A stretch of 64,000 bases of DNA from Patescibacteria group bacterium (GCA_049325535.1 JBMOKY010000001.1:813942-877941); one strand, 5' to 3'. Shown: positions 7,081-41,801, counted from the first letter of the stretch. Notes: generated by a model not told the origin, from the sequence alone. Program-made: numbers and translations.

Positions 7081-7098
7081 GATTATAGTATACCAAAA

Positions 7099-11342: not shown

Positions 11343-12986
11343 TTACCGCTTTCGTTCACTGAATAATTCTCTCCGTCGTCTTGCCCTCAGTACCGACAAC
11401 TGAATATCATCAAATACGTCCGTACCGATCCGCGAGATGCTCTGCTGTTTAATCCGACTGGCGATATGGGGCCATCGTTCGAGCGGTTCATGCCCCACCG
11501 TACCGATAATCCGTTCTGAATTCATGCCATGGTCCCGAAGCGTACGGCAAGCCCGTAACCCATTTAAAATAATTTGATAATACTCCCGTTCCAATACATC
11601 ATCCAGTGCGTCTTTAAAAATTGCCAGACGCTCCGCGGGTAATATTTCCCCGTAGTCCTCCGCCATCCGGATTTTGTCATCATTAAAATAATCATAGAGC
11701 CCTCCATCAGCCTTTTTTTGGGTCAAGGTGGAATACACTTCGTCCAGATCTCGTCCTTCTTTTATATACGCCAATATTTCATCCTTCGCTCGATAAACCC
11801 CGTGCTCCCGAGCATGCCGCAGCTCCCGCCGAATCGTTATGGCTAGGGCTTCATCGTCCATACCCTTCATCATCCGACGTCCAGCGCGCTCTGACGAGTG
11901 TGGCAACATGAATGATGTCGTCACTGAATTAATCGCGTGTTGTTCCTCATGCGCCAATACGCGCTGGGCGGCATATGGATCGTTCTGATTGTCGCTGGCA
12001 TTCTCAACCGTTATCGCACCCTCCAGATCCAGCACCGGCGCTCTATGGAGCTGGCACCCTCCACTTTGCGCGGCGACATCAAAATCATGCTCGGTCAGCC
12101 GGTCGGTGACATCCCCATAATGGTACATCCGCGTGTAGTCGCGCATATCATGACAACGAAGATATATGGTAAATGGCGTCACGTGCAGCTCTACCTCACC
12201 CTGCGGCGAGTCGCCCTGAAACATCCAGCGAAAGAATTCCGGGCCGGTGGAATACTGCTCTGTATACTTTTGTATATCGTGATACCGGGATTCGAGATTA
12301 TTCAAACTTCCCTCGATAATATCCTGAGTAAAACCATCAAATCCATATTTCTTCGCATAAATCTCTACCATACCCGAAAGCTCTCTGGCATCCACTCGCT
12401 GTGTCCGATCCACCATCTGCCGAAGCGCCTCACGCATCTGCCCTAAACCGCGCTGCTGGTACGCCAGCTTAGCCTTGAGCTCACGGATCAGCTGTGGTCG
12501 CTGCTCACGGGGCGCTTCCCGTAATTGCTGCATGGCTGCATCTGAATCAAACACTTCTCCATTGGCAATCGGCTGCACAAAAAAATCCTTGGCGACGTAT
12601 CCCGCCGTCAGCACGGCGTCCAGAGCGGTCGCGCGCAATTGATGGAGTTTTGACAGTACCCCTGTTTCACGATGCATCACCCGAGCCTCCGCTTCAGATA
12701 ATCCAAATTCTTCGTCAATAGCGTGTACCTCCTGTGGCCCCGTCACCAGTAGGTCACCCGCCTCGCGATGGGACGCTGAGAGTTCAGCGGCGAGTTCATC
12801 AAGCCATCGCTGCATATCTTCCGACTGCTCAACTGTGTCGGCTTCCGTTTCTGCCGCATCCGGCTGGAGAGAACCGGTTTCAGTATCCGCCCACCATTGT
12901 TCGCTCTTATTTTTTTCGGCTGATCGCATGACGCAGGTCGTTAATTTTCTTTTTTTCCACATGCGTTCGGTAAGTAGCCAAAACAC
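11343..12986 (-). CDS. Hypothetical cytoplasmic protein with an HExxH motif
   Basis: 547 aa, acidic, helical. Contains LAHEEQHAINS (HExxH zinc-metallopeptidase-like motif). No other recognised domain. Confidence 0.45.
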   Translation of the reverse strand: MFWLLTERMWKKRKLTTCVMRSAEKNKSEQWWADTETGSLQPDAAETEADTVEQSEDMQRWLDELAAELSASHREAGDLLVTGPQEVHAIDEEFGLSEAEARVMHRETGVLSKLHQLRATALDAVLTAGYVAKDFFVQPIANGEVFDSDAAMQQLREAPREQRPQLIRELKAKLAYQQRGLGQMREALRQMVDRTQRVDARELSGMVEIYAKKYGFDGFTQDIIEGSLNNLESRYHDIQKYTEQYSTGPEFFRWMFQGDSPQGEVELHVTPFTIYLRCHDMRDYTRMYHYGDVTDRLTEHDFDVAAQSGGCQLHRAPVLDLEGAITVENASDNQNDPYAAQRVLAHEEQHAINSVTTSFMLPHSSERAGRRMMKGMDDEALAITIRRELRHAREHGVYRAKDEILAYIKEGRDLDEVYSTLTQKKADGGLYDYFNDDKIRMAEDYGEILPAERLAIFKDALDDVLEREYYQIILNGLRACRTLRDHGMNSERIIGTVGHEPLERWPHIASRIKQQSISRIGTDVFDDIQLSVLRARRRRELFSERKR

Positions 12987-13107
12987 GCGCCTGTTCTTTT
13001 TTACAGTCAGCTATCCTTGCCCGGGCGTCAGCCACGAGCTTTTGCATCGTTTCCCTGTCGTTTGTAGAGACCGGTTGATTCATCTTCCTACCCTACCAAA
13101 TACATGC

Positions 13108-13497
13108 TCATATAGGCAAGTGCCAATTCTGGTCATGCACACAAAAAATCGCCGCATCGCGCATCCACCGTCGCCGTTCGTGTCCGACAAACGCCCGGAT
13201 ACCGTGATCTCGGATGTACTCCAGATTTTCCAGCATACTCATACCATATTTGGCGCGGTACCGTTTATCGAGATGCCGCAACCGAGCGCAGGGGTACGTA
13301 TCGCACTGTAAACAATACTGCCAATCATGACGAATACGCTTGGCGCATTTTTTTATGATGCAGTTCCGGCAACTTGTTTGCTTATGCGTATCATCATATC
13401 GGCAGCCCGGGCAGTGATTTTTTTCACGGAGGAAAGCCATGCACAGCGCGCAATCCATACCGCACGGGGCGATGAGTTTTTGTGCAATTACTTTCAT
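13108..13497 (-). CDS. DUF3795-like Cys-rich protein
   Basis: CGMDCALCMAF...HCPGCR...CRNCIIKKC...CLQCDTYPC pattern. Start taken at MKVIAQK (13497), which gives a 4-nt overlap with the upstream gene. Confidence 0.5.
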   Translation of the reverse strand: MKVIAQKLIAPCGMDCALCMAFLREKNHCPGCRYDDTHKQTSCRNCIIKKCAKRIRHDWQYCLQCDTYPCARLRHLDKRYRAKYGMSMLENLEYIRDHGIRAFVGHERRRWMRDAAIFCVHDQNWHLPI

Positions 13498-13979
13498 CAG
13501 ACTCGCCCAAAAATCACCACGTAATTCTTCCCGTACTTCTTGGCGCACGTGGGGCAGGTCGTATACCACATGTACCATTTTTTGATTGCTGCGTACCCTT
13601 GGGTTTTGGCATACGCTTCAAATTCTTTGCACCATTTGCCCGTGTCTTTGAAATTGCCCTCATACACCTTGCTCAGCATGGTGCCGCTCAGGGTGATATT
13701 CTTCGCTCCCGGAATTTCCTTGTCCACGGCGATGTACAGGTCCATGTTCCATTTCGACGTATGGTCGGAAAGTGACATCCAGTCGAGCGCTTTCCCCCCA
13801 GCGGCGTCGATCTTCAAATTCATCCGCGTGACCACCTGCCCAAAATTCATGGGCATGAAAAACAGCGTGAACACTCGATCCGTAATAAACTTCTTTTTGT
13901 TCCATCTGAATGTTTTGCCGTCCCAGAGTGCCGGGTCAAACGGTGGGCAACAATCTTTTTTTGGGTCGTAATTTTCCAT
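13497..13979 (-). CDS. Hypothetical protein
   Basis: 160-aa ORF with C-terminal TCPTCAKKYG. No confident family assignment. Confidence 0.4.
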   Translation of the reverse strand: MENYDPKKDCCPPFDPALWDGKTFRWNKKKFITDRVFTLFFMPMNFGQVVTRMNLKIDAAGGKALDWMSLSDHTSKWNMDLYIAVDKEIPGAKNITLSGTMLSKVYEGNFKDTGKWCKEFEAYAKTQGYAAIKKWYMWYTTCPTCAKKYGKNYVVIFGRV

Positions 13980-14097
13980 AAGGGTATAGTAATGAGTATG
14001 TAATGCACAATAGGCACACGGTAGTACGTCCGTGGCTAATAATAACTATTTTCATTTGTACCGTGCCGAATAATATTCGGCTGTCGATACTGGCATT

Positions 14098-14289
14098 CTA
14101 CAGTATCTGCTGGACTCTGCCCACCTCACCCGACACCAGTCGCACTTTTATCCCATGCGGGTGCGTCGGAGAACTGGTGAGTATGTCCTGTACCACACCC
14201 TCGGTTAATTTCCCGGTGGGCTGGTCTTCTTTCAGAATAACAGCGACGCGGAGACCGGGAAATATATTGCCTCTATTATGCGGGTTCAT
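14098..14289 (-). CDS. YwbE-family (DUF2196) small protein
   Basis: GKLTEGVVQDILTSSPTHPHGIKVRLVSGEVGRVQQI matches the YwbE signature (TNSPTHPHGIKVRL). Confidence 0.6.
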   Translation of the reverse strand: MNPHNRGNIFPGLRVAVILKEDQPTGKLTEGVVQDILTSSPTHPHGIKVRLVSGEVGRVQQIL

Positions 14290-14295
14290 AGGTTA

Positions 14296-14679
14296 TTACC
14301 GTTTTTGGAAATATCCATACTCTTCGTTCAGCAGATCCTCAAACGCTCGCGCGCTCAGGCTCCGCACAGCATCGGCTGCCGGCGTGTTACCATCGGCATA
14401 TGGATTTCCATACCGCTCAATGATAAAAAGCGTGGCATCCATGACCGCCTGCTCATGCTCATATGCATCCCCCGTAGATTCTGCACGGAGGACGGCATCG
14501 ATCCGCCCAGTATCTCCGGCGGCACCCCGCTCCAAGACTTTCATCGCCTGCACATATCGCTCGCTGCTCCGGTCATGCCGCTCTGCTATTGCGTCCGTGT
14601 GCTGGCCGGCCTCCGCGATCAGGCGATCCACCATCTGCTCTATGTGATCCGGCGCTCCTCTCGGCTGTTCTGGATTCAT
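14296..14679 (-). CDS. Hypothetical acidic protein
   Basis: 127-aa ORF. Called on the minus strand because the overlapping plus-strand ORFs translate to S/R/C-rich low-complexity sequence. Confidence 0.4.
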   Translation of the reverse strand: MNPEQPRGAPDHIEQMVDRLIAEAGQHTDAIAERHDRSSERYVQAMKVLERGAAGDTGRIDAVLRAESTGDAYEHEQAVMDATLFIIERYGNPYADGNTPAADAVRSLSARAFEDLLNEEYGYFQKR

Positions 14680-14685
14680 ATGCTA

Positions 14686-15273
14686 TCAATCGTAAATATT
14701 TTTCCCACTCATCAGTCTGACAGTGCGAACGACGATCGCTATGCCGATGCCGACGATACCCAAGATGATCAGCCACGGAAAAACGGCATTTGCCCACTCC
14801 CACCCGCCAAACAGATTCTTAAAATTAAAAGGAAACACCTGAAACATGCGTACGCTCACATAGATGCCAAACCCGTCAGTGACCAGCCGCCCGACGAAAT
14901 ACAGCAGCCGCCCATCCATAAACACAAACACGGCATTGACGATGATATTTAAATAAATGGAATACCGGACAACCTGATCTACCTGGCTCCACTCGTCAGT
15001 GATAAAAGTCCAGTCCCAGGCTTGAAAATTATTGATAATCCAGAGGAATATAAGGGAAAAGGCTATCACAAAAACGTAGCCGATCCGGCGGCTTGCTTTT
15101 GATTTTGCAGCGCGCCGTACCGTTCCATCCTTTTTCTTCTGAAAATGACTCTCAACCTGTTTGCCGATTTCTGCCCCGACTTCCTTACCGATAGCGCCGC
15201 CGATCTCTTCACCAATACCCTGATGCGATTTTTGTTGTTTAGATTCCATAGAAATAATATATAATTTGCTCAT
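14686..15273 (-). CDS. Membrane protein, hypothetical
   Basis: 195 aa. N-terminal IGEEIGGAIGKEVGAEIGKQV repeats followed by 3-4 TM helices. Confidence 0.45.
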   Translation of the reverse strand: MSKLYIISMESKQQKSHQGIGEEIGGAIGKEVGAEIGKQVESHFQKKKDGTVRRAAKSKASRRIGYVFVIAFSLIFLWIINNFQAWDWTFITDEWSQVDQVVRYSIYLNIIVNAVFVFMDGRLLYFVGRLVTDGFGIYVSVRMFQVFPFNFKNLFGGWEWANAVFPWLIILGIVGIGIAIVVRTVRLMSGKNIYD

Positions 15274-15308
15274 GCCAATCCCCTGTAATCATATGAACCA
15301 GGTGTCCA

Positions 15309-15701
15309 TTACGGATGTTCCGCCCGATCATTCACCTGCGCCCCTTCGGGTAAAACGCCACTACTGGAATGCCCTGAATATCTGTAGTGATGCATCAGAA
15401 ATAATCCCCCGATCACGCAGAGTGGCACTGAAAACAAAAGGATAGACATAGTTTCAAATCCGCCGATAAAAAGAAAGGCGACGCCAAACACCACAAACAA
15501 CCACCCGCCGATCCGCTCCCATTTCCAGGCTACATATAAAATACCTACCCCAAAAAAACTCGGCAGAAGGTGCATCACTAGCGCCAGCACGAATTCTCCG
15601 GCGCCGTATCCCTCACTAAAAACATCCAGAGCGAAAATGGAAATGAACCCAATGAACAATATTCCCAGAACGCGCGGTGCCCAGTAAAAAAATTTTTTCA
15701 T
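15309..15701 (-). CDS. Membrane protein, hypothetical
   Basis: 130 aa with 4 predicted TM helices. Confidence 0.45.
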   Translation of the reverse strand: MKKFFYWAPRVLGILFIGFISIFALDVFSEGYGAGEFVLALVMHLLPSFFGVGILYVAWKWERIGGWLFVVFGVAFLFIGGFETMSILLFSVPLCVIGGLFLMHHYRYSGHSSSGVLPEGAQVNDRAEHP

Positions 15702-15715
15702 ACACCCAATAATGG

Positions 15716-15901
15716 ATTACTCATTTTCCATGCAGCGACACCGCGTCACTGTTTTCGACGCCAGTCGATACGCGATCACGAACGCCCCTTTCGCCTCCGC
15801 GCCTTTTCTTCGAGCATCAGCTTCTTTGCGGCCAGGCGTTTGGCTGTTTTATGGGAGCGGGATTTCTTGCCCTTGCCGACCCCCGTGCTTCGTTTTGCCA
15901 T
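15716..15901 (-). CDS. Possible small, highly basic protein (61 aa)
   Basis: Manual translation gives MAKRSTGVGKGKKSRSHKTAKRLAAKKLMLEEKARRRKGAFVIAYRLASKTVTRCRCMENE. It falls below the ORF-track size cutoff and is K/R-rich. No confident homology. Confidence 0.25.
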
Positions 15902-16112
15902 AGATGTATTGATTAATAAATAATATGTTCATAGTATACCACAGATACATATTTCTTTTTACCAGCAGTCGCGGACTGCATATCACGCGTCGCTGGACGC
16001 CGTAAAAAAACTTAAACAAATTGATAATCGCCTGACGGTCAAACTCGACATCGATGCGAAAAGAGATACGCGGCGTGGGGAACTATGATAGCCCTCATCG
16101 GGAATGTCCGCA

Positions 16113-17321
16113 CTATTCCTGAACCTTATACACCATCAGATAGAACCCATTTCTCAGCGGGACGACCGACGGGTCAGCAGTGGCGCCCGGTGAACTGGGA
16201 TCGGTAAACTGGTCACCAGTGGCGGTAAACGACGTCGGGGTCGTGCCCGTAGCGATGCCAATACCGGCAGTGAAGAGATAATACGTCCCATCGTGATAAT
16301 ACACATCCGGCACCGCCCCGCCCTGGTAGGCGATACCACCCTCGGTAAAGGTCAGTCCATCGTCTGAGGTAGCATAGATGACTTGATTGCCTTCAATATC
16401 GCCGCCGTAGAGGTACCAGGTATCACCAAAGTGCTCCACATCCGGATCAAATATCCCCCGCCGCTCAAACCGGATACCTTCCTCCATGGCGAAGTGAATA
16501 CCGTCATTGGAAATTGCTGAGTATATCTTATTCGTCGGCTCAATGCCACTGGCCGGTTTATTCATCCGCGCTTCATTGATATCGAAGAAATACAGGCGAA
16601 TGCGACCATCATCCAGCACCACTGGTGCTGGATCAGCCAGCGCCCTGTCTCCCAATCCATCAATGGTCAATGTACGCTGCTCGGTCCATGTCGCCCCTTC
16701 GTCGTCACTCATGACCATCCCCAGTTGCTCCTTGATCCCGTCTTGTGATACATCCACAAAATAAACAAAGATGGTTCCATCCATGAATACAGCCCCAGGC
16801 ACGGATGCATGGTCCGCCAGCATCACCCCACGGGCGCTCCAGGCACGCAAATCATTACTCAGCGCATAAGTAATACGGTCGCGGTACGGACCCCGGTCCA
16901 TGGTCGACCAATTGAATTCCAGGGGATTGTCGAGTGGAAGAGCGGCATGATCAGCATCACAGACATCGGTCGGCTTCGGATCAGTCGGATTCCCCTGCTT
17001 GACCCAGTCTTTGCCATCACAGATCCACACGTCGTCCATGGTGCCAGGTATGGTTTGAACATTTGTGTTGGCCTGAGTCGTGTCCGGAGTGACCTCCCCG
17101 GTCGTGCACGAGTGGGGTATGCCATAGCACGTCACCTCCACTGGACCGACAGCCTGACTATGACGTGCTATACCCATGCATTGGCACGAACGGATCTCAC
17201 ATCCAGCGCATGTGCCTCCAGAACCGCCGTCTTTCGGAAAGAAAAAAGCAACCATTCCGATAATGAATATTGAAATGATAATATACGCTGATTTTTTCAT
17301 ATGGAAAAAACTGTTAGACAA
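16113..17321 (-). CDS. Secreted BNR/Asp-box repeat beta-propeller protein (sialidase/glycosidase-like)
   Basis: N-terminal signal anchor. Asp-box motifs SDDEGATW and SDDGLTF (SxDxGxTW/F), plus repeated YxxF/YYLF blade motifs. Confidence 0.55.
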   Translation of the reverse strand: MSNSFFHMKKSAYIIISIFIIGMVAFFFPKDGGSGGTCAGCEIRSCQCMGIARHSQAVGPVEVTCYGIPHSCTTGEVTPDTTQANTNVQTIPGTMDDVWICDGKDWVKQGNPTDPKPTDVCDADHAALPLDNPLEFNWSTMDRGPYRDRITYALSNDLRAWSARGVMLADHASVPGAVFMDGTIFVYFVDVSQDGIKEQLGMVMSDDEGATWTEQRTLTIDGLGDRALADPAPVVLDDGRIRLYFFDINEARMNKPASGIEPTNKIYSAISNDGIHFAMEEGIRFERRGIFDPDVEHFGDTWYLYGGDIEGNQVIYATSDDGLTFTEGGIAYQGGAVPDVYYHDGTYYLFTAGIGIATGTTPTSFTATGDQFTDPSSPGATADPSVVPLRNGFYLMVYKVQE

Positions 17322-17975
17322 TTATACTCTGTCCGCACTGTATAACTTCAGCATGAAACTCCGTGCCACCACATAGAAACTATCTTTGTACTCTATCCAC
17401 AGTTCAGAGGTGGTATTGAATGACACCACATAGTACCGATCACCGGCGTCGTATACCGCCACCATGACCGTGTACTCCACGTCCTGCTGTACAAATTCCA
17501 TGGCGGTAAAGGTAGCCGTCAACCCATTCACCGTCTCATCATCGGTATCAAAAATATTCACCCCATCAATCGTGCTGATAATATCGTCGATAGTCCGCTG
17601 GTACACCTCGGCTGGTGATCTCCCATTCGTCGTATCAAAAGAGACGGCGATATACGACTGAAAATTGATGGCCGCAGCAGCGCTTCCCGCCGGCTGTTGC
17701 TCACGTTCATTATGGAAAGAAACCAGCGTTCCGCTGAGATGCCCCTGAATCCAGCCCGGCAGTTGCAGCAGAGTGAAACCGTCGCCAATGTAAGTCCCAG
17801 GAGTCGCTGTGTTCACATTCATATACGCGTTGGCATTACTCACTAGAGTATTGGTAACCGTATTGCCCGCGCCTGTTTCGTTGTCATTGTGCTGCAAGGC
17901 AACATACAGTCCGATGCCACCACCGACGATGACGACCACAGCCATGATGATGGATAGCGATTTTTTCATATGCAC
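17322..17975 (-). CDS. Secreted hypothetical protein
   Basis: 217 aa with an N-terminal TM/signal helix. Its stop abuts the start of the next gene. Confidence 0.45.
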   Translation of the reverse strand: MHMKKSLSIIMAVVVIVGGGIGLYVALQHNDNETGAGNTVTNTLVSNANAYMNVNTATPGTYIGDGFTLLQLPGWIQGHLSGTLVSFHNEREQQPAGSAAAAINFQSYIAVSFDTTNGRSPAEVYQRTIDDIISTIDGVNIFDTDDETVNGLTATFTAMEFVQQDVEYTVMVAVYDAGDRYYVVSFNTTSELWIEYKDSFYVVARSFMLKLYSADRV

Positions 17976-18020
17976 GTCATGTTAATTCTCTTCACTGCAA
18001 GCATATCACTCCAGTACAAA

Positions 18021-18560
18021 TTAATACAGCGCGTATTCCCACCCTGGTTGCCACTGCCCGCTCCGGCGCCAGTCTGACTGAATCGCCTCGGGCCAGGATT
18101 TTTTGTTGCATAGAACTTCGAGCGCCAGTTGCGGCGCCTGATGTGCAACTATCGCCACGCGCTTGCCGTCATACCGAACTTTGAGAAATGCCAGTACATC
18201 TGCGACACGCCGCTCGACATCGTGATAACTTTCGCCGTTGGGGAATCCGGTGCTGATGTACCGCTCTAAATCATGTTTGAAGTGGTCGGGCTGGCCGTTC
18301 CACTTCCCATAGTTTGCTTCGCGCAACCGCTTGTCCTGAATTATGTCATAGCGTCCACCAAACGCCAGCCGGGCAGAGTCAACCGCCCGTCTCAAATCAG
18401 AACAGAATACCGCGTCAAACTGCTTACCCTTCGCCATCTCGCCTAATATTCGAGCCTGCTCAACACCGAGTTGCGAAAGCTCGCCAGGCAACCAACCGGT
18501 GGCAATCCCGGCTTCATTATCAGTCGTGGTGCCGTGAACGAAGTAGGTAAGGTGAATCAT
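18021..18560 (-). CDS. Histidine phosphatase family protein (phosphoglycerate mutase-like)
   Basis: N-terminal LTYFVHGTTTDNE (the RHG-type catalytic His motif context). 179 aa. 4-nt overlap with the upstream Nudix gene. Confidence 0.6.
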   Translation of the reverse strand: MIHLTYFVHGTTTDNEAGIATGWLPGELSQLGVEQARILGEMAKGKQFDAVFCSDLRRAVDSARLAFGGRYDIIQDKRLREANYGKWNGQPDHFKHDLERYISTGFPNGESYHDVERRVADVLAFLKVRYDGKRVAIVAHQAPQLALEVLCNKKSWPEAIQSDWRRSGQWQPGWEYALY

Positions 18561-19468
18561 ATCTGTCGACGCTCCTTGGCCATTTCTTTCTCGACCGCGG
18601 CTAATACCTGAGGTAAATCCTTATACACAAAAGAGGTGAACTGCGCTTTATCCTCCTCGCGCAGGCCACGCAACTTCTCCATCGGCCACCATTCGAGGCA
18701 CGTTGCCTTGCCATCTTCGAGCCGCAGCGTATCCGTGCCCTCTCGAAATCGATACAGATACATACAGCGAAATGCATAATTAATCATTCCATTCTTTTGC
18801 TGATTGCTCTGGCGCTTATTTTTATACATGAAAAATAAATCCTCCGGCTGGACCCGTATCCCCGTCTCCTCTTCCATTTCCATAATCGCCGCGCCAAGGT
18901 ATGTCTGGCCGGCGCTCACATGGCCACCCACCGATGTGTCCAGCTTGCCCGGTGCAATATCTTTATCCGGGGCTCGCCGCTGAAGCAGGATATCCCCCTT
19001 CGCATTATAGATAAACACCCCAACCTCCCGGTGGAGCTCGGCATTCATGTGAATTGCATGACGGTCTCCTTGCCCGATGACATGGTCATGCTCATCCACA
19101 ATATCGAGCCGCTCGGAGCTGCCTGATGATCGAGGAAATTTCAAAACCACAACCATGAGGAATACGCCAACCGCCGGCACCAGATACACCAAATCAAACC
19201 AACCCACCTGGTCAGTGATGGTAGTAATGACATTAAACCCGGCAACCACCAGCGCACCCCACCATGCCCAGCGCCGTCCTCGGCCCAAAAAATACGCCAA
19301 CGTGCCGATGAGCAGTGCATTGACCAATCCAACTGCGCTGTATAGGTAGCGGTAATCGGATCCCTGCCAGAGCCACCACGCTGACCAGCCGATCCATAAA
19401 ACAGACACGACATACATCGCCCACAGGGTCACGCGAATTCGTCGAGATGGCGTCTCTTTCATAAAAAC
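18557..19468 (-). CDS. Nudix hydrolase fused to an N-terminal multi-TM domain
   Basis: Nudix box GGHVSAGQTYLGAAIMEMEEETGI. About 120 N-terminal aa form 3-4 TM helices. Start taken at the internal ATG (19468) to avoid overlap with the upstream gene; the ORF track opens at 19492. Confidence 0.6.
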   Translation of the reverse strand, partial: VFMKETPSRRIRVTLWAMYVVSVLWIGWSAWWLWQGSDYRYLYSAVGLVNALLIGTLAYFLGRGRRWAWWGALVVAGFNVITTITDQVGWFDLVYLVPAVGVFLMVVVLKFPRSSGSSERLDIVDEHDHVIGQGDRHAIHMNAELHREVGVFIYNAKGDILLQRRAPDKDIAPGKLDTSVGGHVSAGQTYLGAAIMEMEEETGIRVQPEDLFFMYKNKRQSNQQKNGMINYAFRCMYLYRFREGTDTLRLEDGKATCLEWWPMEKLRGLREEDKAQFTSFVYKDLPQVLAAVEKEMAKERRQI

Positions 19469-19472
19469 CATG

Positions 19473-20084
19473 TTAATGCTCGTTTGAGGCAATCACCGAT
19501 CGTTTGTTTACAAAAAATCCATAATACACCGCAGTGAAATTGAGTACCATGTGCGCTGCTGAAGCGACGATCAAATTGGGGAATACGGAATATAGGGCGC
19601 TGAAACCAAGCCCCGCTACCAGTGCCAGCGGCAGATGCACTCGCCAGTTTCCATAGATGCTATGCATGATGGCAAAAAGAACGGCATTGATGATGACGGC
19701 CGCCCAGACGACGTCAGTCAGCTCAATCAACTGGCGCAGAGAAAATGACATGAACACGTACTGCTGGCCGATGCTGATGGGGATGAACCAATATCGAAAA
19801 TGCGTGTCCTGACGCCAGTCGGTATGGGGCGCCTGACCCAATACCATCGACAGCCAACGCAAAAAAACGCACCCCGTCACCGCAAATATCCCATAGGCCA
19901 ACAGTGTGGCGACTATATAGTCGGTATGGATGCCGATATCGGCCAGGGTGGTGCGTCGAATGAAAAAAACACCGCTGATAGCCAGTACCACCCCGGTAAG
20001 TAGATACCACCGCCACCGAGCGCGGATCATGCCGGAAGTAATCAATGCCAGCGGTAGGATTATCATAAAAACGAATTCGACCAT
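19473..20084 (-). CDS. CPBP-family intramembrane metalloprotease (CAAX protease-like)
   Basis: FxxxH (AVLFAIMHS) and HxxxN (AAHMVLNF) motifs in TM helices. Start taken at MVEFVFMII (20084), adjacent to the upstream stop; the ORF track opens at 20162. Confidence 0.6.
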   Translation of the reverse strand: MVEFVFMIILPLALITSGMIRARWRWYLLTGVVLAISGVFFIRRTTLADIGIHTDYIVATLLAYGIFAVTGCVFLRWLSMVLGQAPHTDWRQDTHFRYWFIPISIGQQYVFMSFSLRQLIELTDVVWAAVIINAVLFAIMHSIYGNWRVHLPLALVAGLGFSALYSVFPNLIVASAAHMVLNFTAVYYGFFVNKRSVIASNEH

Positions 20085-20085
20085 A

Positions 20086-21036
20086 CTACTTATAATACAC
20101 CATTTCAAAGTAACTTGTGGTTGGCGCTGCGGTAGTACCGGCCAGGATGCCGGAATTGGCATGGTGCAGTACGGTATACCCGGTTATTCCTCGCTGAGAC
20201 AGCCAGAAGAGCAGCAGTGCTATCGAGGGCGGCGAATCCAGGTAATCATTGAAGCGCGCGCCAAACGACAAAATAGTCTGGTAGTCGAGCGTCTCCAGAG
20301 CGGCCCGTGTCACATGGTCATGCGCCTCAGCTTCTGGCACTGACAGGTAATGGGAAAAATCGACGGCCGCCACGACTACGGTTTGATCATCGAAGTGCTG
20401 ATCCAGCAGCGCCACCAGCCGCTGCAGCTCCGGCAGCCGCAATTCCGCTTTCAGAATAACCGGTACGACGGTCGTTCCGGGCAAGTAATGACCAATAAAT
20501 GGCATGATGGCTGATACCGAATGCTCATTGACCGCTACGTGATCATTGGCCAAGGCATATCCCCCGTCAACCAGCGCCTGAACCAATCCTTGATCGGCTT
20601 CGACGAGCCCATTTGCCGTTTTCCAGGAAGCGGCCGTGGTCTGCACCAAACCGCTGCCGACCTCGTGGTGATTCGGTCCGATCAGAATGATACGCTGGGG
20701 CTGCTGCGACTGCAACCCCTGAAAAAAATGGGCGATATACTCCCCGCGGGTAAAATCATGGGGGATAATGGCACCCAGTACTTTTTTTTCCGGAAACGCC
20801 GGCCCGAGCTGAATCGCCCGCTCTACCGAACGCTGGAACTGATTTGGGTAGTAGTACGGCGTTTCCAGAATGCGTACTGATTGCGGTCTGTTCATCTTCG
20901 GATTACCAGCATCAACCGTACTGATGATGGTACTGCTGATGGCGACGATGCCCGGCAGGGCGATGGCCAGCACCACGATGAAGTGCCAGCGTTTCAGTGT
21001 GCGGCTATTCGATGGTGACGCTGGTGGATGTGCCAT
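20086..21036 (-). CDS. MEMO1-family (UPF0103) protein with N-terminal signal anchor
   Basis: AIIPHDFTRGEYIAHFF and ILIGPNHH motifs resemble the MEMO1/AmmeMemoRadiSam protein B family. 316 aa. Confidence 0.45.
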   Translation of the reverse strand: MAHPPASPSNSRTLKRWHFIVVLAIALPGIVAISSTIISTVDAGNPKMNRPQSVRILETPYYYPNQFQRSVERAIQLGPAFPEKKVLGAIIPHDFTRGEYIAHFFQGLQSQQPQRIILIGPNHHEVGSGLVQTTAASWKTANGLVEADQGLVQALVDGGYALANDHVAVNEHSVSAIMPFIGHYLPGTTVVPVILKAELRLPELQRLVALLDQHFDDQTVVVAAVDFSHYLSVPEAEAHDHVTRAALETLDYQTILSFGARFNDYLDSPPSIALLLFWLSQRGITGYTVLHHANSGILAGTTAAPTTSYFEMVYYK

Positions 21037-24000
21037 AATTCACACTGGAGCGCACCACGAATCCCTGCACCACCGGCGCATCGGCAGTAAAGGTACCCTT
21101 GCCAGTCACCAGGGCGTAGTAATAAAACTCCTGGGACGTCCGGCCGGTCCAAAATTTTACCGCCTGACCATTGACCTCGTAGGGATACCGGTACAACTGT
21201 TCATACGGTACATTTCGAGAAGAAAGATTGGACAGCAGTTTCAAACCGGCCGGCAGATAATCGGTCACCTGATACTCCGTATCCAGAGCACCGCTGCTGA
21301 TTGACGGTTTCAGTGTCACCCGGACGATATCATTTGCCCGGAATATCGTCGTTGGTTGACCATTGACGGTGTACTCCCGCGTGATGCTCAGATTCGCATC
21401 AGTGAGCGCCGATGCAGGGTCGACCGGCTGTTGGTAGGAGCTTATCACTCCGACTTCGCCCTCGATACCGCTGAACGTGATGGCCGAGAGCTGTTCTGGG
21501 GTTACTGACAGTGCATAGGTATCTGCATCTTCCAGAATAACTGATTTTGTCTCCCCATCAAGCGTATAGCTGAAACGTACCGGATCTCCGCTCAAAAGCG
21601 GTACTGCCGTCTGAATATACGCCAGCTGATCGATCGTATGCAGCGTCAGATTAGCCGGATGCGCCAGCGCGTATTGATACAGTTTTGGAGCCTCTTCCGA
21701 GGACACTGCCGCAGCGAGCACGGCCGCCTGGTACGTATACTCAGTATAGTCATCCTGGGTAGTGCCGAGCTGGACTTCGATATACGGATCAGCAGCATGG
21801 CCGTGCTCATTCAAGACCTCTTGCAGCAGGGTAGCGGCATACTCGGAAGCACCGAGCTGAGCCACCGCCCGTGCCAGATACAGCTTCAGCTCTGCGGAAA
21901 CATCGTGGTGTGCCATGAAAATATTGATATCAGTCAGTACGGGCTCACCGAGATTTGCCAATCCCAGCAAAGCATAGACAATCTCATCGGTGTTACTCTG
22001 GCGGTTATTGAGCACGCTGTAGAAATAATCACGGCCGGCAATCGCATCAAACAACCCAGGTGCCACTCCAAATGTCTTCGCGGTGGTCAATAACTCAGCC
22101 GATGAATAGGGCAAGAGGGATATGCCACCCTCAGGCAATTGGTAATCGGTAAAGGTGATGGCCGGAAGCGTGCCGTCTTCGCCGAAATACTCATTCAGCA
22201 GCGATTGAGCCTGATACCGTCCGAGCTGTTGCTCAATCCGGTCGCCGTACGACCAGATCAGCGCCTGCAGATCACGGTAAAACTGGCCCCGTTCGAGATT
22301 GGTAAAGACCAGGGATGTGCGGCGGTCCGCGCTACCGGAGAGCGGGGCGGCTGGTTCCAGCCGATAATACTGCGTCGTACCGACGGTGATATGGGAATCA
22401 TGGTACTGCATGGTTTTGATCACAGCATCGGTAGAGCTCCCCTGTTTTCCTTCCACGCGGATCTGATGGGTGCCCGCCGGAAAATCCGGGAGTCCCACCG
22501 CCACGGTGTCCTGGGCACCCGCTGAACGGGTAATCACATCCTCAGAGAATCCGGGAAACGTGATGGTATAGGTCACCGCCGTATCTGGATCGACCGCCCG
22601 ACCGAAACTCCGCAGCAGCACCTGTGGCGCGTCCCCCACCACATAGTCCCCGGCTACCGCCACGTCCACGAAATACGGCTGAGTGGCGATGAGTGCGGTT
22701 TGCGCGGCTTGTGCCTGCAGATCCTTGGTCAACGCATGTACGGTAGTCTGCCAGGACGTAATATTGTCCGGCAGCTTAAACGTAACCGAGGCGTTTCCGG
22801 ATCGGTCAGTGGTGGTGCTGCCGAAATACGCGATGTCCTGAAAATTCTGGCGGCCACCACCCTTTTCATTGTGTACGTAGATGCCGTCCGCGATGAAAGT
22901 ATGGTACGGTTCGGTAGTCAGATTGTATACGTCAATCTGATGATACTGACGGATAATCGAATGAATCACCACGCGACTGCCCTGCTGGTCGATGAGCCAG
23001 TCTCCGACCCGTGCGCTGCCGATCGTCTGCCACGACCCATTCAGCAAAACGACATGTTCCGGCGTGACGCGCAGGGAACCATTGATCACCAGATATTCCG
23101 CCACGCGGTGCTCAAATGTATTGGTGACGGTGGCACTGACCAGTTCATCGCTCCCGACCGCCGGATGCGTGGCCACTGAATCACCGATCCGAATCTCCCC
23201 AATGTGTTTGGTCGTGCCATCTGCCATGAGGATGGTGGTATCGCCGCTGAAACAGCCTCCCCCCTCGGCCATGGCATTCAGCTCTGCTTTATGCGTCTGG
23301 TATGAATACACAATCGGTGATGGTAAATACTGATACAGCGTACTCAACACCTCTGCAGGATTTGCCCACTGGATGGCGGTCAGCGCCTCGTCGATGGCGG
23401 ACACATTGACCGTCGCGGTCACGGGATTATTGGCAGAGTCAGTCACATGAATATCCAGAGTCACATCTTCACCCGGACGATACGCCGGCTGATCCGGCGA
23501 CAACTGAATCTGCAGAGCTTTCAGACTCCGATCATAGTTCAGTTGTAGACCGTCAGTCAGGGCATACCCCCGACCGTCAAAATAGAGTCCATATACGTAG
23601 ATATTTGGGGCATAGCTCTCCCGAAACGTAAATGACATGCCCGGCTGATTGGTAGGATAGAGGTCAAACAGGTTGGTCTGACCTTTGAAGAAGAGGATGT
23701 TTTTTTCCTGAGTGGCACCGACTATTTCATCATTCCGGTACAGAGATACCGCCACATTATCTCCGGGTCGAAAATCGCCTATGCCGCTCTCGTCCTGAGC
23801 GTCCACGGCCACATGATACTGGACAAATCCCTGCGAAGCCGCCCAGTAGTCCCATGACCCCTGGTATAAGTACGAGGTCGAGGTGGCCTCCCGGCCATCA
23901 GGATCGGTGACGCGGACTTCGATACGATAATTCTGATCAGCTGCCGGCTGAAAACCGGCAGTATAGGCACCGTCAGTGTTGGTTACTGCCGAGAGGGTGG

Positions 24001-26440
24001 CAATTTCATCCGAGTGTGACTGATAATCATAAGTTTTATACGTTTTTTTGCTGATGATGTCATAGCGTGTACCGGTTTCCGTCTTGGTATAGTATTCGTG
24101 GAATACCGTCATGGCTATAGCGGCATTAGGAATAGGATCGCCCTCATATTCCCAAGAAAATTCATCAGCAGCGGCATTGATCGTTTCTAAATCAATCGCA
24201 TGTACCGAGCCCGATACAAAGCCTTCCTGGTTCACGCTACTATCCACGGTATAGCGAGGACCAAATGAATAAATGTACGCATCGGTATAGATGCCGGACA
24301 ATTCGGCATTGGTCGGATGCACGGAGAAATATTCATACTCCGGATAATACCCCCCGCTGTAGCTCGTGCCCAGCACTACCCGTGCCGTGCCATCCGCATC
24401 GGTCGTCACTGTGCCGGTGCCCAGCGCTCCCGTATACTGCAGCTCCAGATTACCCACCGGCGTCCCATCATAAAACATGGCGGTGATGTCAAAGATAGCG
24501 TCTTCCCCTTCGAATATCGCTTTCTTTGGCGTCGACACTTCAATTTTATACGCAGGCTTCGTATAGGTGGCCACCTCCACATACTGTGACAGTATTTCAG
24601 TGCCGTCTACGGTGACACCCAAACGATAACTGCCCGGATTGAGGTGACGATAGTCGATCGACCCCTCATACGTCCCGTAGTCAGACACCGGTACTTCCTG
24701 AGTAGCGATGATTTCATCCTCCATCGACGTGTAATAATTGGCACTTTTCGTAAACGTGATGGTCGCCGCCTGTGGCCCGCGAACATCCGCCCGGGGGCGG
24801 ATGACCCCCCAAAACTTCACGCTGTCGTCCGGCGAGTAGAGTGTCCGATTGGTATACAGATACGTCCAGTAGTCCCGCGAAGCATTATTCATGAACCCAT
24901 TAAACTCATAGTGCGGAATCACAGGCACCAGTAGGTCGCCACGCTCGGTATGGACGGTAAAAAAACTGGCGGCGAGTGGTGCGTCGGATGACCGGTCAGC
25001 GATGTCCGATGGCGTAGCAAAAGAAGCTAAGCCGTCACGGTCAGTCTCCGCGCTGAATGCCGCATCGCCGGAATATCCGATCGAGGCGTCACTGACCGGC
25101 GCCTGCGTACCGAGATCATGTACCCAGATAAACGAATTGTCGGGGCTGGATTGATAGCTGGCGGTCAGCTGCCCCACCTGCAGAAATGCCTGGGCTTTTG
25201 TGTCGCCATAGGGTACCTGAACCAGATAGTACCCGGCCGGCAGAGCTTCCGGGAATTCAATGTATTGGAAATAATCAGATGATTTCTTTTCCGCGTCAAA
25301 AGTTGCCTGGAGCGTCAGTGAATCCGTGGCATACGGATGCGTACGCCAGGCATACGCCGCCCAATACGGCAAGCTGGCGAACGACTGTACGGCATCGGTA
25401 AATTCGCGGAATGAAGTAAATGCATATACCTGAACCGGAATGGCGGTCAGCCCGGAATTATATTCACTCACGGTCATGACCGGCGCTTCAGAAGACGGAT
25501 ACTCAAAAAATTCCTTAGTAAAATCAAAATACCCATACGACTCTTGAGATTGATCAGTTTCGAACTGAAACTGGTAATCAGCAACCAGGGTGTCGTCGCT
25601 CCCGTCCAATGGCAGTCCGGCCCGTACCGTGACAGTGTAGACGGTCATGGGTGCCAAGCTATCGGGCACAAATACCAGCGTTTTGCGGTATTGCTCAAAA
25701 CGCCCACTCACCGCCGGCGAGATGGATACATACTGCTCATACTCCCGGAAATTTTCATGGGAAAAAGTAATCTCGATGCCAGAGTCACGCGGCACGGTGG
25801 TTGCCTGATCCCGCGGCACGGTGGACATTACTTTAAACGTGTCCTTGGTCTGATAGGCCCACTGATACTCACGTTTCTGTTCATCCCCAACCGTCTGTGC
25901 GACCATGCTGAATTGATAAATTGTACCATCGTCCAGCGGTTGACTCGGGGTAATGGTAAACGTATTTGTATCAGAAGAATGCACCGCGTAGGCAATGGCG
26001 GGCTCGATCTGCAAATTACCCTCCACGGTGGCTACGTCAATTGGCAGTGAGCTGGTCAAGGTAAATGAGGTGGCGGTATCCACGCCCAGAATATCTCCTG
26101 AATCCGCCGACAGCTTCAGCTGCACGTCCGCATCAGTGAGAATGACCGGGATAGTCCGGGTATCCGAAATCGACTCGGGCCCAAACCAGACATACCCAAA
26201 CAATCCACAGGCGACCAGGGCGGCGAGCGAGGATAGAACGATTAATGACCGTTTCATAGACATGGGAATAAATGATAAAAATGCTGGCTGGTCAATCTCC
26301 TGCGGCGATTGACGACGTTGCATTTCCGACGCGGCGATCAGGCGCGCCCTGATCCGTCGGCTGGCTGCATCGTCCATCGTCGGCGGGGTGCCATGATGTA
26401 ACAGCCGTTTGACACTATGGATATCGAAAGGGGTTTTCAT
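21005..26440 (-). CDS. Giant (1811 aa) membrane-anchored MG-domain/alpha-2-macroglobulin-like surface protein containing an internal Hint domain
   Basis: Cytoplasmic N-terminus of about 65 aa, then a TM helix (LIVLSSLAALVACGLFGYVWF), then a long array of Ig/MG-like segments. A2M-domain-like LPDNITSWQTTVHA motif is present. A TED-like helical region (LLGLANLG...) lacks the GCGEQ thioester. A Hint domain lies at residues 1063-1191. The start overlaps the ECF sigma stop (ATGA). Confidence 0.7.
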   Translation of the reverse strand: MKTPFDIHSVKRLLHHGTPPTMDDAASRRIRARLIAASEMQRRQSPQEIDQPAFLSFIPMSMKRSLIVLSSLAALVACGLFGYVWFGPESISDTRTIPVILTDADVQLKLSADSGDILGVDTATSFTLTSSLPIDVATVEGNLQIEPAIAYAVHSSDTNTFTITPSQPLDDGTIYQFSMVAQTVGDEQKREYQWAYQTKDTFKVMSTVPRDQATTVPRDSGIEITFSHENFREYEQYVSISPAVSGRFEQYRKTLVFVPDSLAPMTVYTVTVRAGLPLDGSDDTLVADYQFQFETDQSQESYGYFDFTKEFFEYPSSEAPVMTVSEYNSGLTAIPVQVYAFTSFREFTDAVQSFASLPYWAAYAWRTHPYATDSLTLQATFDAEKKSSDYFQYIEFPEALPAGYYLVQVPYGDTKAQAFLQVGQLTASYQSSPDNSFIWVHDLGTQAPVSDASIGYSGDAAFSAETDRDGLASFATPSDIADRSSDAPLAASFFTVHTERGDLLVPVIPHYEFNGFMNNASRDYWTYLYTNRTLYSPDDSVKFWGVIRPRADVRGPQAATITFTKSANYYTSMEDEIIATQEVPVSDYGTYEGSIDYRHLNPGSYRLGVTVDGTEILSQYVEVATYTKPAYKIEVSTPKKAIFEGEDAIFDITAMFYDGTPVGNLELQYTGALGTGTVTTDADGTARVVLGTSYSGGYYPEYEYFSVHPTNAELSGIYTDAYIYSFGPRYTVDSSVNQEGFVSGSVHAIDLETINAAADEFSWEYEGDPIPNAAIAMTVFHEYYTKTETGTRYDIISKKTYKTYDYQSHSDEIATLSAVTNTDGAYTAGFQPAADQNYRIEVRVTDPDGREATSTSYLYQGSWDYWAASQGFVQYHVAVDAQDESGIGDFRPGDNVAVSLYRNDEIVGATQEKNILFFKGQTNLFDLYPTNQPGMSFTFRESYAPNIYVYGLYFDGRGYALTDGLQLNYDRSLKALQIQLSPDQPAYRPGEDVTLDIHVTDSANNPVTATVNVSAIDEALTAIQWANPAEVLSTLYQYLPSPIVYSYQTHKAELNAMAEGGGCFSGDTTILMADGTTKHIGEIRIGDSVATHPAVGSDELVSATVTNTFEHRVAEYLVINGSLRVTPEHVVLLNGSWQTIGSARVGDWLIDQQGSRVVIHSIIRQYHQIDVYNLTTEPYHTFIADGIYVHNEKGGGRQNFQDIAYFGSTTTDRSGNASVTFKLPDNITSWQTTVHALTKDLQAQAAQTALIATQPYFVDVAVAGDYVVGDAPQVLLRSFGRAVDPDTAVTYTITFPGFSEDVITRSAGAQDTVAVGLPDFPAGTHQIRVEGKQGSSTDAVIKTMQYHDSHITVGTTQYYRLEPAAPLSGSADRRTSLVFTNLERGQFYRDLQALIWSYGDRIEQQLGRYQAQSLLNEYFGEDGTLPAITFTDYQLPEGGISLLPYSSAELLTTAKTFGVAPGLFDAIAGRDYFYSVLNNRQSNTDEIVYALLGLANLGEPVLTDINIFMAHHDVSAELKLYLARAVAQLGASEYAATLLQEVLNEHGHAADPYIEVQLGTTQDDYTEYTYQAAVLAAAVSSEEAPKLYQYALAHPANLTLHTIDQLAYIQTAVPLLSGDPVRFSYTLDGETKSVILEDADTYALSVTPEQLSAITFSGIEGEVGVISSYQQPVDPASALTDANLSITREYTVNGQPTTIFRANDIVRVTLKPSISSGALDTEYQVTDYLPAGLKLLSNLSSRNVPYEQLYRYPYEVNGQAVKFWTGRTSQEFYYYALVTGKGTFTADAPVVQGFVVRSSVNYGTSTSVTIE
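22868..23254 (-). other. Hint / bacterial intein-like (BIL) domain embedded in the giant protein
   Basis: 129 aa. Block A CFSGDTTILMADG has Cys1; block B is RVTPEHVV (TxxH); the C-terminus is YNLTTEPYHTFIADGIYVHN. The next residue is Glu, not C/S/T. The domain is flanked by GGG on both sides. Confidence 0.75.
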
Positions 26441-26994
26441 AAATCAGCGACGTTGAGTAATTGCTTAAGTTTTCGGATGCCTCGAAATTTAAGCACTCGG
26501 ACATGAACCATGGTGGTCTCCATCAGCGCCGCGATGTCCGCCGTATCCATATCCTCGAGACATGACAGCTGGATAACTCGGCGCATCTGATCGGGAAGTT
26601 GGACAATTGCCTGGCGGACCCTTTCGCTACGCGCGTCATATGTCAGTTCAGCCGGCTCAACGGCCACGGGCGAATGCCGGCCCACTACGATCTGATCCAG
26701 AGAAAGCGTCTCACCCCGCTGTCGATAATGATCGACAAGGCGATGGCGGGCTATTTGAAAGAGCCAGGCGGAAAAAGGAGTGGCAGTGCGGGCTACAAAG
26801 CGCGGCAAAGAACGGATCATTTCCAGGAATACCGTCTGGGTCAGGTCCTCGGCTGTTTCCCGGATGCCGACCCGATAGTAAAAGAAGCGGTATATTCGCT
26901 GATGAAATTCATCATATAGCCGCCCAACGCTCTCCGTATCGCCCGATTGAGCCTGGCGTACGATACCCAGAATATCCGCTTCATCAACCCCCAT
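26437..26994 (-). CDS. ECF (sigma-70 family group 4) RNA polymerase sigma factor
   Basis: Region 2 ETAEDLTQTVFLEMIRSLPRF and region 4 HTH DTADIAALMETTMVHVRVLKFRGIRKL. 185 aa. Confidence 0.8.
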   Translation of the reverse strand: MGVDEADILGIVRQAQSGDTESVGRLYDEFHQRIYRFFYYRVGIRETAEDLTQTVFLEMIRSLPRFVARTATPFSAWLFQIARHRLVDHYRQRGETLSLDQIVVGRHSPVAVEPAELTYDARSERVRQAIVQLPDQMRRVIQLSCLEDMDTADIAALMETTMVHVRVLKFRGIRKLKQLLNVADL

Positions 26995-27126
26995 ACTCTC
27001 TATATCGTATCAATCGATAAATCGTTACAGCTCCGCGCTTCCCATGATATGCGCAGTGCTGAAACGGTCGTGTACTCGATCAACGTAAGTATACTGCCAA
27101 ACCAGCGCCCACTTCAATCCGACCGA

Positions 27127-41799: not shown

Positions 41800-41801
41800 A
41801 T

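Follow-up and report, generated by a model that had tools for sequence, protein, structure and literature searches.

A predicted sigma-binding head on a giant alpha-2-macroglobulin-like membrane protein encoded directly after an ECF sigma factor in Patescibacteria

We analysed a 64,000-nucleotide (nt) stretch of a Patescibacteria group bacterium genome (GCA_049325535.1, JBMOKY010000001.1:813942-877941; hereafter the window), in which a sigma factor gene of the extracytoplasmic function (ECF) type (26437-26994) is directly followed on the minus strand by a gene for a giant protein of 1811 residues (21005-26440) related to the alpha-2-macroglobulins (A2M). The two proteins are identical to NCBI entries MFZ6036356.1 and MFZ6036357.1 from a Patescibacteria metagenome-assembled genome, and the PGAP annotation of MFZ6036356.1 is likewise 1811 residues long with the same start. 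The sigma stop and the giant start share the four letters ATGA at 26437-26440, as the initial annotation had stated and as our check of the open reading frames (ORFs) bore out; this overlap would couple translation of the giant gene to that of the sigma factor. The same annotation had described about 65 cytoplasmic residues, a single membrane helix and an extracytoplasmic body, and we find ~60 residues followed by a helix (hydropathy and AlphaFold2) and then Big_5, macroglobulin (MG) and A2M-Hint domains. Its central suggestion, that the N-terminal cytoplasmic segment (here called the head) may act as an anti-sigma factor, gains support from sequence comparison: the head resembles the N-termini of other sigma partners, similar pairs recur elsewhere, and long N-termini go together with adjacent sigma genes. 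The features of the pair that the argument needs are the following.

27004-27029, minus strand: ECF-type promoter motif TGTAAC-N16-CGAT, a putative autoregulatory promoter 9 nt upstream of the sigma ATG
26437-26994, minus strand: ECF sigma factor gene, 185 residues (Pfam Sigma70_r2 and Sigma70_r4_2; TIGR02952 the best NCBIfam model; 6dxo_A the best PDB match)
26437-26440, minus strand: ATGA, the sigma stop (TGA) shared with the ATG of the giant gene (ORF coordinates, sequence)
21005-26440, minus strand: giant gene, 1811 residues, with anti-sigma-like head, membrane helix, Big_5, MG domains, A2M_BRD, Hint, A2M and C-terminal body
26297-26440, minus strand: residues 1-48, proposed sigma-binding segment with helix 8-15, a proline-rich loop and an arginine-rich helix 24-42 containing AASRRIRARLIAA (profile match, AlphaFold2)
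26255-26263, minus strand: M60-S61-M62, fusion junction and possible internal start, M62 being 26255-26257 (alignment with starts of sigma-less homologues)
26183-26254, minus strand: membrane helix spanning residues ~63-86 and including a lipobox-like LVAC (residues 75-78; hydropathy, AlphaFold2 helix 60-86, weak LPAM_1 match)

The sigma factor matches Pfam Sigma70_r2 (E = 1.7e-16) and Sigma70_r4_2 (E = 3.2e-9) and scores 81.8 bits against the TIGR02937 sigma70-ECF model, well beyond the cut-off of 42.9 bits, which places it among the ECF (group 4) sigma factors. Among the NCBIfam models, TIGR02952 (BldN family) scores highest, at 126 bits and so under the 206.45-bit equivalog cut-off for membership of that family, and the closest solved relative in a PDB search is sigma-BldN (6dxo_A, E = 9e-22). 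Homologues at 40-55% identity all come from Patescibacteria. A scan of metagenomes with the sigma alignment returned only distant ECF sigma factors next to assorted partners, none of them more than 40% identical across most of the query, and was of no help for close synteny. The motif TGTAAC-N16-CGAT has a single match in the window, where 0.11 would be expected by chance. In all seven sigma relatives that we looked up (P0122, P0123, P0127, P0133, P0135, P0145 and P0129), TGTAAC followed after 16 or 17 nt by CGAT lies 24-41 nt upstream of the sigma start, and the ECF-type motif is hence found in 8 of 8 members of the clade, the window included. In known ECF promoters the -35 element contains AAC and the -10 element CG, and given this likeness the motif probably marks autoregulation of the sigma operon. 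At the sequence level, the motif and the ATGA-overlapping gene give the locus both a putative AAC...CGT-type promoter of its own and a downstream, probably co-transcribed candidate regulator, as is typical of ECF sigma factors. The sigma/A2M operons of Bacillota described below have their own conserved upstream ECF-like motif, CGTAACTTTT...CGTT. Scans of the window for generic sigma-70 promoters and for terminators were uninformative.

The sigma relatives also identify what the head of the giant protein resembles. Each of the seven is directly followed by a gene for a single-pass protein of 305-383 residues, which overlaps the sigma stop by 4-11 nt or begins within 7 nt of it, and six of the seven proteins carry the Pfam domain DUF5667 (PF18915) after the helix. 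The 4-nt stop/start overlap of the window recurs in the sigma and partner coordinates of four of the loci (L086, L087, L169 and L170) and of three sigma/A2M pairs (L001, L083 and L084). Alignment of the cytoplasmic N-termini of the partners gives a common pattern of a short helix, a loop and xRIRxRL. Against a profile built from 11 of these N-termini, residues 1-62 of the giant protein score 15.9 bits, which none of 5000 composition-preserving shuffles reaches; with 15 N-termini the score rises to 17.4 bits (0 of 20000 shuffles, best 13.5), and the match covers residues 1-48 and is colinear from residue 1. By BLASTP the head is 45% identical to P0169 over 38 residues, again from residue 1 (E = 4e-5). 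In the AlphaFold2 single-sequence model (mean predicted local distance difference test score 66.6), residues 8-15 and 24-42 are helical and a membrane helix follows at ~60-86. For a comparison with class II anti-sigma domains (CnrY/NepR), in which a short two-helix segment clamps sigma-2 and sigma-4, the head offers these two predicted helices at modest confidence. By these comparisons, residues 1-48 are homologous to the cytoplasmic N-terminus of DUF5667-type partners. After the membrane helix the giant sequence aligns with A2M-family homologues instead, and Pfam finds no DUF5667 domain in it. In its predicted N-in, single-pass topology, its gene directly after the sigma gene and its co-occurrence with a sigma factor, the giant protein is laid out like a membrane anti-sigma factor.

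Run exhaustively with HMMER over 1.84 billion representatives, the N-terminus profile retrieved DUF5667-type proteins and one tandem-repeat artefact (P0167) only, and brought up no new ectodomain types. The same profile searched against PDB found no anti-sigma chain, including that of RsbN, the class III representative. A suspected link between the DUF5667 partners and mycobacterial RsdA was dropped after no Pfam RsdA_SigD_bd match was obtained and the PDB search came back empty.

The coupling of an ECF sigma factor to an A2M-like protein recurs outside the window. Among GTDB species representatives, a scan yielded 80 loci of this A2M family, from Patescibacteria, Bacillota and Chloroflexota. 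Of these, 20 have, like the window, an ECF sigma gene directly upstream on the same strand (gap -44 to +30 nt), and at least 49 residues precede the membrane helix in all 21 of these sigma-linked loci. With a long N-terminus defined as 45 or more residues before the helix, the 74 evaluable loci divide as follows.

Long N-terminus: sigma upstream 21, no sigma 11
Short N-terminus: sigma upstream 0, no sigma 42

Long N-termini and upstream sigma genes are thus associated (Fisher's exact test, p = 8.5e-11; the loci are phylogenetically non-independent, so this significance is overstated). The heads of the sigma-linked A2M proteins fall into several unrelated sequence types, and those outside the window show no or only weak matches to the profile of DUF5667-partner N-termini. 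Two further homologues, P0092 (Bacillota, 30.4 bits) and P0109 (24.6 bits), contain a Pfam zf-HC2 anti-sigma domain above the gathering score of 22.2 bits, each with a sigma gene overlapping its start. In L001, where the giant protein is 57% identical to that of the window, the sigma stop overlaps the giant start by 4 nt and the head has ~77 residues. We compared the sigma factors through pairwise identities and a rough neighbour-joining tree without support values. The window sigma falls within the DUF5667-linked Patescibacteria clade, most other A2M-linked sigma factors form a separate clade, and the zf-HC2-linked ones are placed elsewhere. The separate clade is only 22-30% identical to the window sigma, and these placements imply at least three independent sigma-A2M couplings, in Bacillota and in Patescibacteria. 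This recurrence is the strongest argument that the joining of a putative sigma-binding head to an A2M-like ectodomain is functional.

Among the long N-termini without an adjacent sigma gene, L074 3911-8983 (Peptococcaceae) has a Bacillota-type anti-sigma-like head and glycolate-oxidase-like genes upstream; either its sigma factor is encoded elsewhere or the pair has decayed. The other ten are mostly low-complexity.

How the window pair may have formed is suggested by its synteny with L086, the locus of the closest sigma factor. The shared genes, with their identity to L086, are listed below.

26440-27009 (as listed in the comparison): sigma, 55% identity
10837-11355: flavodoxin-like, 64% identity
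7855-10833: IleRS, 77% identity
7102-7851: RecO, 45% identity

In L086 the gene of the DUF5667 partner separates the sigma gene from the flavodoxin-like one. In the window, ~15 kb (11356-26263, minus strand), from the A2M-Hint body on, stand in place of the partner's membrane helix and DUF5667 domain; besides the A2M-Hint body, this block encodes Memo, a protease of the CPBP type, NUDIX, a histidine phosphatase, a protein resembling GH43, a 'Bact_hydrolase' and others. M62 (MKRSLIVLSS...) aligns with the annotated start of sigma-less homologues such as P0003 (MKRIYVIASS...), and P0003, P0005 and others have an N-terminus that begins with MKR or MKK and leads straight into the membrane helix. 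Because of this match, M62 is, on the alignment, the ancestral A2M-Hint start and residues 1-61 are an addition. A partner-type head is thus joined in frame to the A2M-Hint start, a graft of a putative sigma-binding head onto a complete A2M-Hint protein. In the related Patescibacteria genome of L088, an A2M-Hint-Memo arrangement (1-1646) lies ~5 kb upstream of a same-strand sigma-DUF5667 pair (6001-7672), and tandem duplication followed by deletion of an L088-like arrangement could yield the window fusion.

An in-frame stop two codons upstream makes the coupled ATG the first possible start of the giant gene. In frame, the coding score of codons 1-59 is +0.12 bits per codon, compared with -0.45 and -0.20 in the other two frames, and no off-frame window reaches this coding score. 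Shine-Dalgarno-like motifs precede few of the 35 starts checked in the window, and ribosome-binding sites therefore cannot decide between the candidate giant starts. The initial annotation had regarded a true start at the internal MSMKRS as fatal to its proposal of a cytoplasmic domain. M62 is indeed the ancestral start on the alignment, but a full-length product is still expected, since the frame is open from the coupled ATG.

The membrane helix also contains, after MKRSLIVLSSLAA, a lipobox-like LVAC (26207-26218, minus strand; residues 75-78), and a product started at M62 could resemble a lipoprotein precursor. We rejected a lipoprotein start at M62: the hydrophobic run extends beyond the cysteine, and the cysteine is absent from the sigma-less homologues inspected.

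The extracytoplasmic body contains the following domains.

25556-25837, minus strand: Big_5 (bacterial Ig-like), residues 202-295, the best-scoring of 2 stretches (Pfam PF13205, whole-protein E = 4.2e-14)
23378-23773, minus strand: A2M bait-region domain (A2M_BRD), residues 890-1021 (Pfam PF07703, E = 1.6e-10)
22868-23254, minus strand: Hint domain, residues 1063-1191, between A2M_BRD and A2M (Pfam PT-HINT and Vint, NCBIfam intein_Cterm)
22652-22819, minus strand: A2M family domain, residues 1208-1263 (Pfam PF00207, E = 1.4e-8)

A2M_BRD and A2M exceed the Pfam cut-offs and place the protein in the A2M family; MG2 and bMG3 match weakly, below the cut-offs. Several of the 248 giant homologues are labelled A2M family by their sources. 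The giant protein has no CxEQ thioester motif, C78 and C1063 being its sole cysteines; the family as a whole lacks this thioester, with an incidental CxEQ in 4 of 120 giant homologues. The Hint domain has Cys1 (C1063), TPEH and a terminal VHN, followed by a glutamate at +1, and is flanked as GGG/C...HN/EKGGG. A splicing intein was rejected on the +1 residue, which is Glu instead of Cys, Ser or Thr. The domain fits the PT-HINT or bacterial intein-like kinds of Hint, which cleave rather than splice, and because it has no +1 nucleophile it, too, should cleave and not splice. It occupies the position of the bait in A2M and of the anaphylatoxin domain in C3; we speculate that a Hint-generated thioester at this bait position could replace the missing A2M thioester. 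Hint is present whether or not a sigma factor is linked, and the Bacillota pairs gave no Hint-family Pfam match in our searches; Hint is therefore not required for the coupling. Several giant homologues from Clostridia (P0100, P0102, P0104-P0107, P0110-P0112) carry a dockerin domain (PF00404), and these would be cellulosome-attached A2M-like proteins.

The giant protein can be compared with several known groups of proteins. The DUF5667 proteins are uncharacterised single-pass proteins that follow ECF sigma factors in Patescibacteria and other phyla. They share with the giant protein the homologous N-terminus (short helix, loop, xRIRxRL), a start that overlaps or abuts the sigma stop, one membrane helix, and the same sigma clade and promoter motif. 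The giant ectodomain, in contrast, is a 1725-residue A2M-Hint body, compared with a ~100-residue domain and an acidic tail in the DUF5667 proteins, and the giant protein lacks their internal VT-x5-RY/promoter-like element. This element is an exact second copy of TGTAAC-N16-CGAT inside the partner genes (L086 719-744, L087 6671-6696 and L170 3183-3208), which lies 110-119 nt into the gene in three of seven and there encodes the conserved VT-x5-RY peptide. Of the 16 DUF5667 partners listed, 15 have a methionine where the membrane helix begins or a few residues from there, commonly as KPMIPI. The internal motif and the methionine hint at a sigma-dependent internal promoter giving a head-less DUF5667 partner; the giant gene of the window has no internal TGTAAC-N16-CGAT.

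Among characterised anti-sigma factors, RsbN, which holds sigma-BldN in Streptomyces venezuelae (PDB 6DXO), spans the membrane once; its class III domain binds the sigma factor through three helices joined by flexible linkers, alpha-3 being clamped between sigma-2 and sigma-4, and RsbN had no sequence similarity to earlier anti-sigma factors (PMC6101532). The giant head likewise belongs to a single-pass protein and has no sequence relatives among the earlier anti-sigma factors, but its cytoplasmic part has ~60 residues and two predicted helices, compared with 117 residues and three helices in RsbN. The zf-HC2 (ZAS, class I) anti-sigma factors have the topology and gene order of the giant pair. 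Their domain is present in the giant homologues P0092 and P0109, whereas the window protein has no PF13490 match and no HxxxCxxC motif in residues 1-85. Bacterial alpha-2-macroglobulins such as E. coli ECAM/YfhM consist of MG, bait-region and A2M domains, are membrane-anchored and face outward, and their proposed role is the trapping of attacking proteases (PMC4498604). The giant protein has the same three kinds of domain but differs from ECAM/YfhM in having no CxEQ, an N-terminal membrane helix instead of a lipid anchor, an inserted Hint domain and a putative sigma-binding head. In RsiV/sigma-V (lysozyme) and RsgI/sigma-I (polysaccharides), the anti-sigma ectodomain meets the external agent directly, and for RsgI self-cleavage is part of signalling. 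RsiV and RsgI would be the closest functional analogy for a protease-sensing A2M anti-sigma factor with a Hint domain, although their domains are unrelated to those of the giant protein. The literature searched contained nothing that links anti-sigma factors with A2M or macroglobulin, and no published description of a sigma/A2M pair; the main text of the 2021 ECF reclassification mentions no macroglobulin, A2M or Big_5 and no Patescibacteria.

We consider it likely, with a probability of roughly 0.7, that the head is a sigma-binding anti-sigma segment and that the pair forms an autoregulated operon of an ECF sigma factor and a chimeric membrane anti-sigma factor. The two-helix head with its arginine-rich helix would hold the sigma factor at the membrane, and destruction of the giant protein would free it to transcribe its own operon and so replenish the trap. 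The most likely trigger would be foreign proteases that cut the thioester-less A2M-like ectodomain, followed by intramembrane proteolysis, so that one surface defence protein would serve as sensor and output at once. That the A2M-like ectodomain senses proteolysis is a tentative part of this proposal, which we would put clearly below even odds. We are similarly cautious about its widest form, in which A2M-like surface proteins may constitute an unrecognised class of ECF anti-sigma sensors for proteolytic attack, evolved at least three times, where cleavage of the ectodomain or, in Patescibacteria, self-processing by Hint would license intramembrane proteolysis, free the sigma factor and induce more of the trap. 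For the origin of the pair, the comparisons support a lineage-specific domain swap within a wider, apparently undescribed class of sigma/A2M-like anti-sigma pairs. Conservation of the pair in relatives, a check named in the initial annotation, gives a mixed result. The exact pair is not conserved: the nearest giant proteins lack a sigma factor and the nearest sigma factors have DUF5667 proteins, which taken alone would speak against the idea. Analogous pairs, however, recur in at least three sigma lineages.

Several observations weigh against an anti-sigma role of the head. For the DUF5667 partners themselves, an anti-sigma role is deduced from position and topology only, and the literature searched does not mention DUF5667. 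Residues 1-85 or 1-100 match no known anti-sigma family in Pfam, NCBIfam or PDB sequence searches, the profile comparison proposed at the outset; the 17.4-bit match is to the partner N-termini. With the full-length giant protein among 8756 ORFs, the profile match has E = 0.53 and is not significant alone; the significance of the head consequently rests on the shuffle test and on colinearity. The coding score of codons 1-59 is low for true genes here (3.7th percentile; mean 0.37, s.d. 0.13), and M60 or M62 could serve as an additional or alternative start. Eleven loci have long N-termini and no adjacent sigma gene. P0002, at 69% identity the closest homologue of the giant protein, lacks both the sigma factor and the head, and the exact pair is known only from five near-identical strains in which residues 1-110 are invariant, so that selection on the fused head is not measurable. 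As to release, a Pfam scan of 29 window ORFs identified no site-1 or site-2 protease, and the bait/Hint region lies ~1000 residues from the membrane, which makes the usual route of intramembrane proteolysis awkward.

This distance also favours a reading in which the head binds the sigma factor but the A2M-Hint ectodomain does not receive the signal. The fusion would then do no more than tether the sigma factor and tie its level to that of the giant protein, and release would come by other means, such as general envelope proteolysis, turnover or a cytoplasmic cue. A sigma-binding head and a membrane helix would suffice to sequester a sigma factor, and because the window fusion appears to be lineage-specific, evolution of the ectodomain as a sensor is not required. 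However, the same architecture arose independently several times and persists in Bacillota and Patescibacteria, which argues that the combination itself is selected; we regard a non-sensing ectodomain as possible but doubtful. It is rather unlikely that the gene gives two products, a full-length anti-sigma form through coupling and a head-less A2M-Hint protein from M60/M62, so that only a fraction of the traps would hold the sigma factor. The methionines just before the giant membrane helix and an AT-rich stretch before M60 would fit such a pair of products, as would the DUF5667 partners with their methionine near the helix start (15/16 listed) and internal sigma promoter motif (3/7 genes, 110-119 nt in). 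The window gene, however, lacks an internal TGTAAC-N16-CGAT, and in the partners the motif coincides with the conserved VT-x5-RY peptide and may reflect a constraint on the protein.

Without a functional head, codons 1-59 would be the relic of a DUF5667-type anti-sigma gene truncated by the arrival of A2M-Hint, with the giant protein starting at M60/M62 and the sigma factor orphaned or controlled elsewhere. The ancestral character of M62, the weak LPAM_1 match by which residues 62-78 resemble a lipoprotein or signal-anchor start, the low coding potential of the extension and its absence from the nearest homologue are all in keeping with a relic, which would be in frame one time in three. We nevertheless find this improbable: the frame is open from the sigma-overlapping ATG as in the relatives, so ribosomes would read into the giant gene anyway, the conserved head motifs are intact, PGAP calls the long form, and an ECF sigma factor driving its own promoter without an anti-sigma factor would run away. 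We give hardly any weight to an extension that is open by chance next to a sigma gene that is merely a neighbour. By our own uncomputed estimate 59 codons would stay open by chance in ~5% of cases, but the homology of the extension to the partner N-termini of the sigma clade, the ATGA coupling and the family-wide association between sigma genes and long N-termini all speak against such a chance arrangement.

Pairs of ECF sigma and anti-sigma factors are a major route of bacterial sensing, and the outer domain of the anti-sigma factor sets what is sensed. If the preferred reading of the pair as a sigma factor and its membrane anti-sigma factor is true, an A2M-type trap as anti-sigma factor would add a new input, attack by foreign proteases, and would connect bacterial A2M-like proteins to gene regulation for the first time. 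This architecture occurs in about a quarter of the 80 A2M-family loci sampled and is hence not a one-off, and some of the pairs are in Bacillota with cultivated relatives (Gracilibacter, Peptococcaceae, Clostridia), so that it may be testable beyond the uncultured Patescibacteria. The window locus itself looks like a clean natural domain swap, with the putative sigma-binding head of a partner family attached precisely where the start codon of a surface protein unrelated to it lies. To our knowledge, regulation in Patescibacteria is almost unstudied, and the analysis supplies a promoter motif for one of their ECF clades.

Downstream of the giant gene the same strand continues with a further group of genes.

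18021-21036, minus strand: genes for a Memo-like protein, an Rce1/CPBP-like membrane protease, NUDIX and a histidine phosphatase, each overlapping the next (ORF coordinates, Pfam)

Given the overlap of successive genes, those to ~18021 probably share one operon with the sigma-giant pair. A Memo-like gene lies directly 3' of the A2M-Hint gene whether a sigma factor is present or not (window 20086-21036, minus strand; L002 9279-10163; L088 819-1646), which suggests a conserved functional partnership of the two. Elsewhere in the window, a protein of 733 residues (36881-39082, minus strand) combines FecR, a domain typical of sensors in trans-envelope signalling, with Glucodextran_B and fn3 domains, and adjoins two large proteins with FG-GAP repeats (39112-43574). 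TATAAT-like sequences (tatactataatcATG, ctatactatagctatctATG) stand within ~10 nt before several ATGs, for example upstream of 7080, 30677 and 26994 (minus strand), which suggests that many mRNAs in the window are leaderless or near-leaderless.

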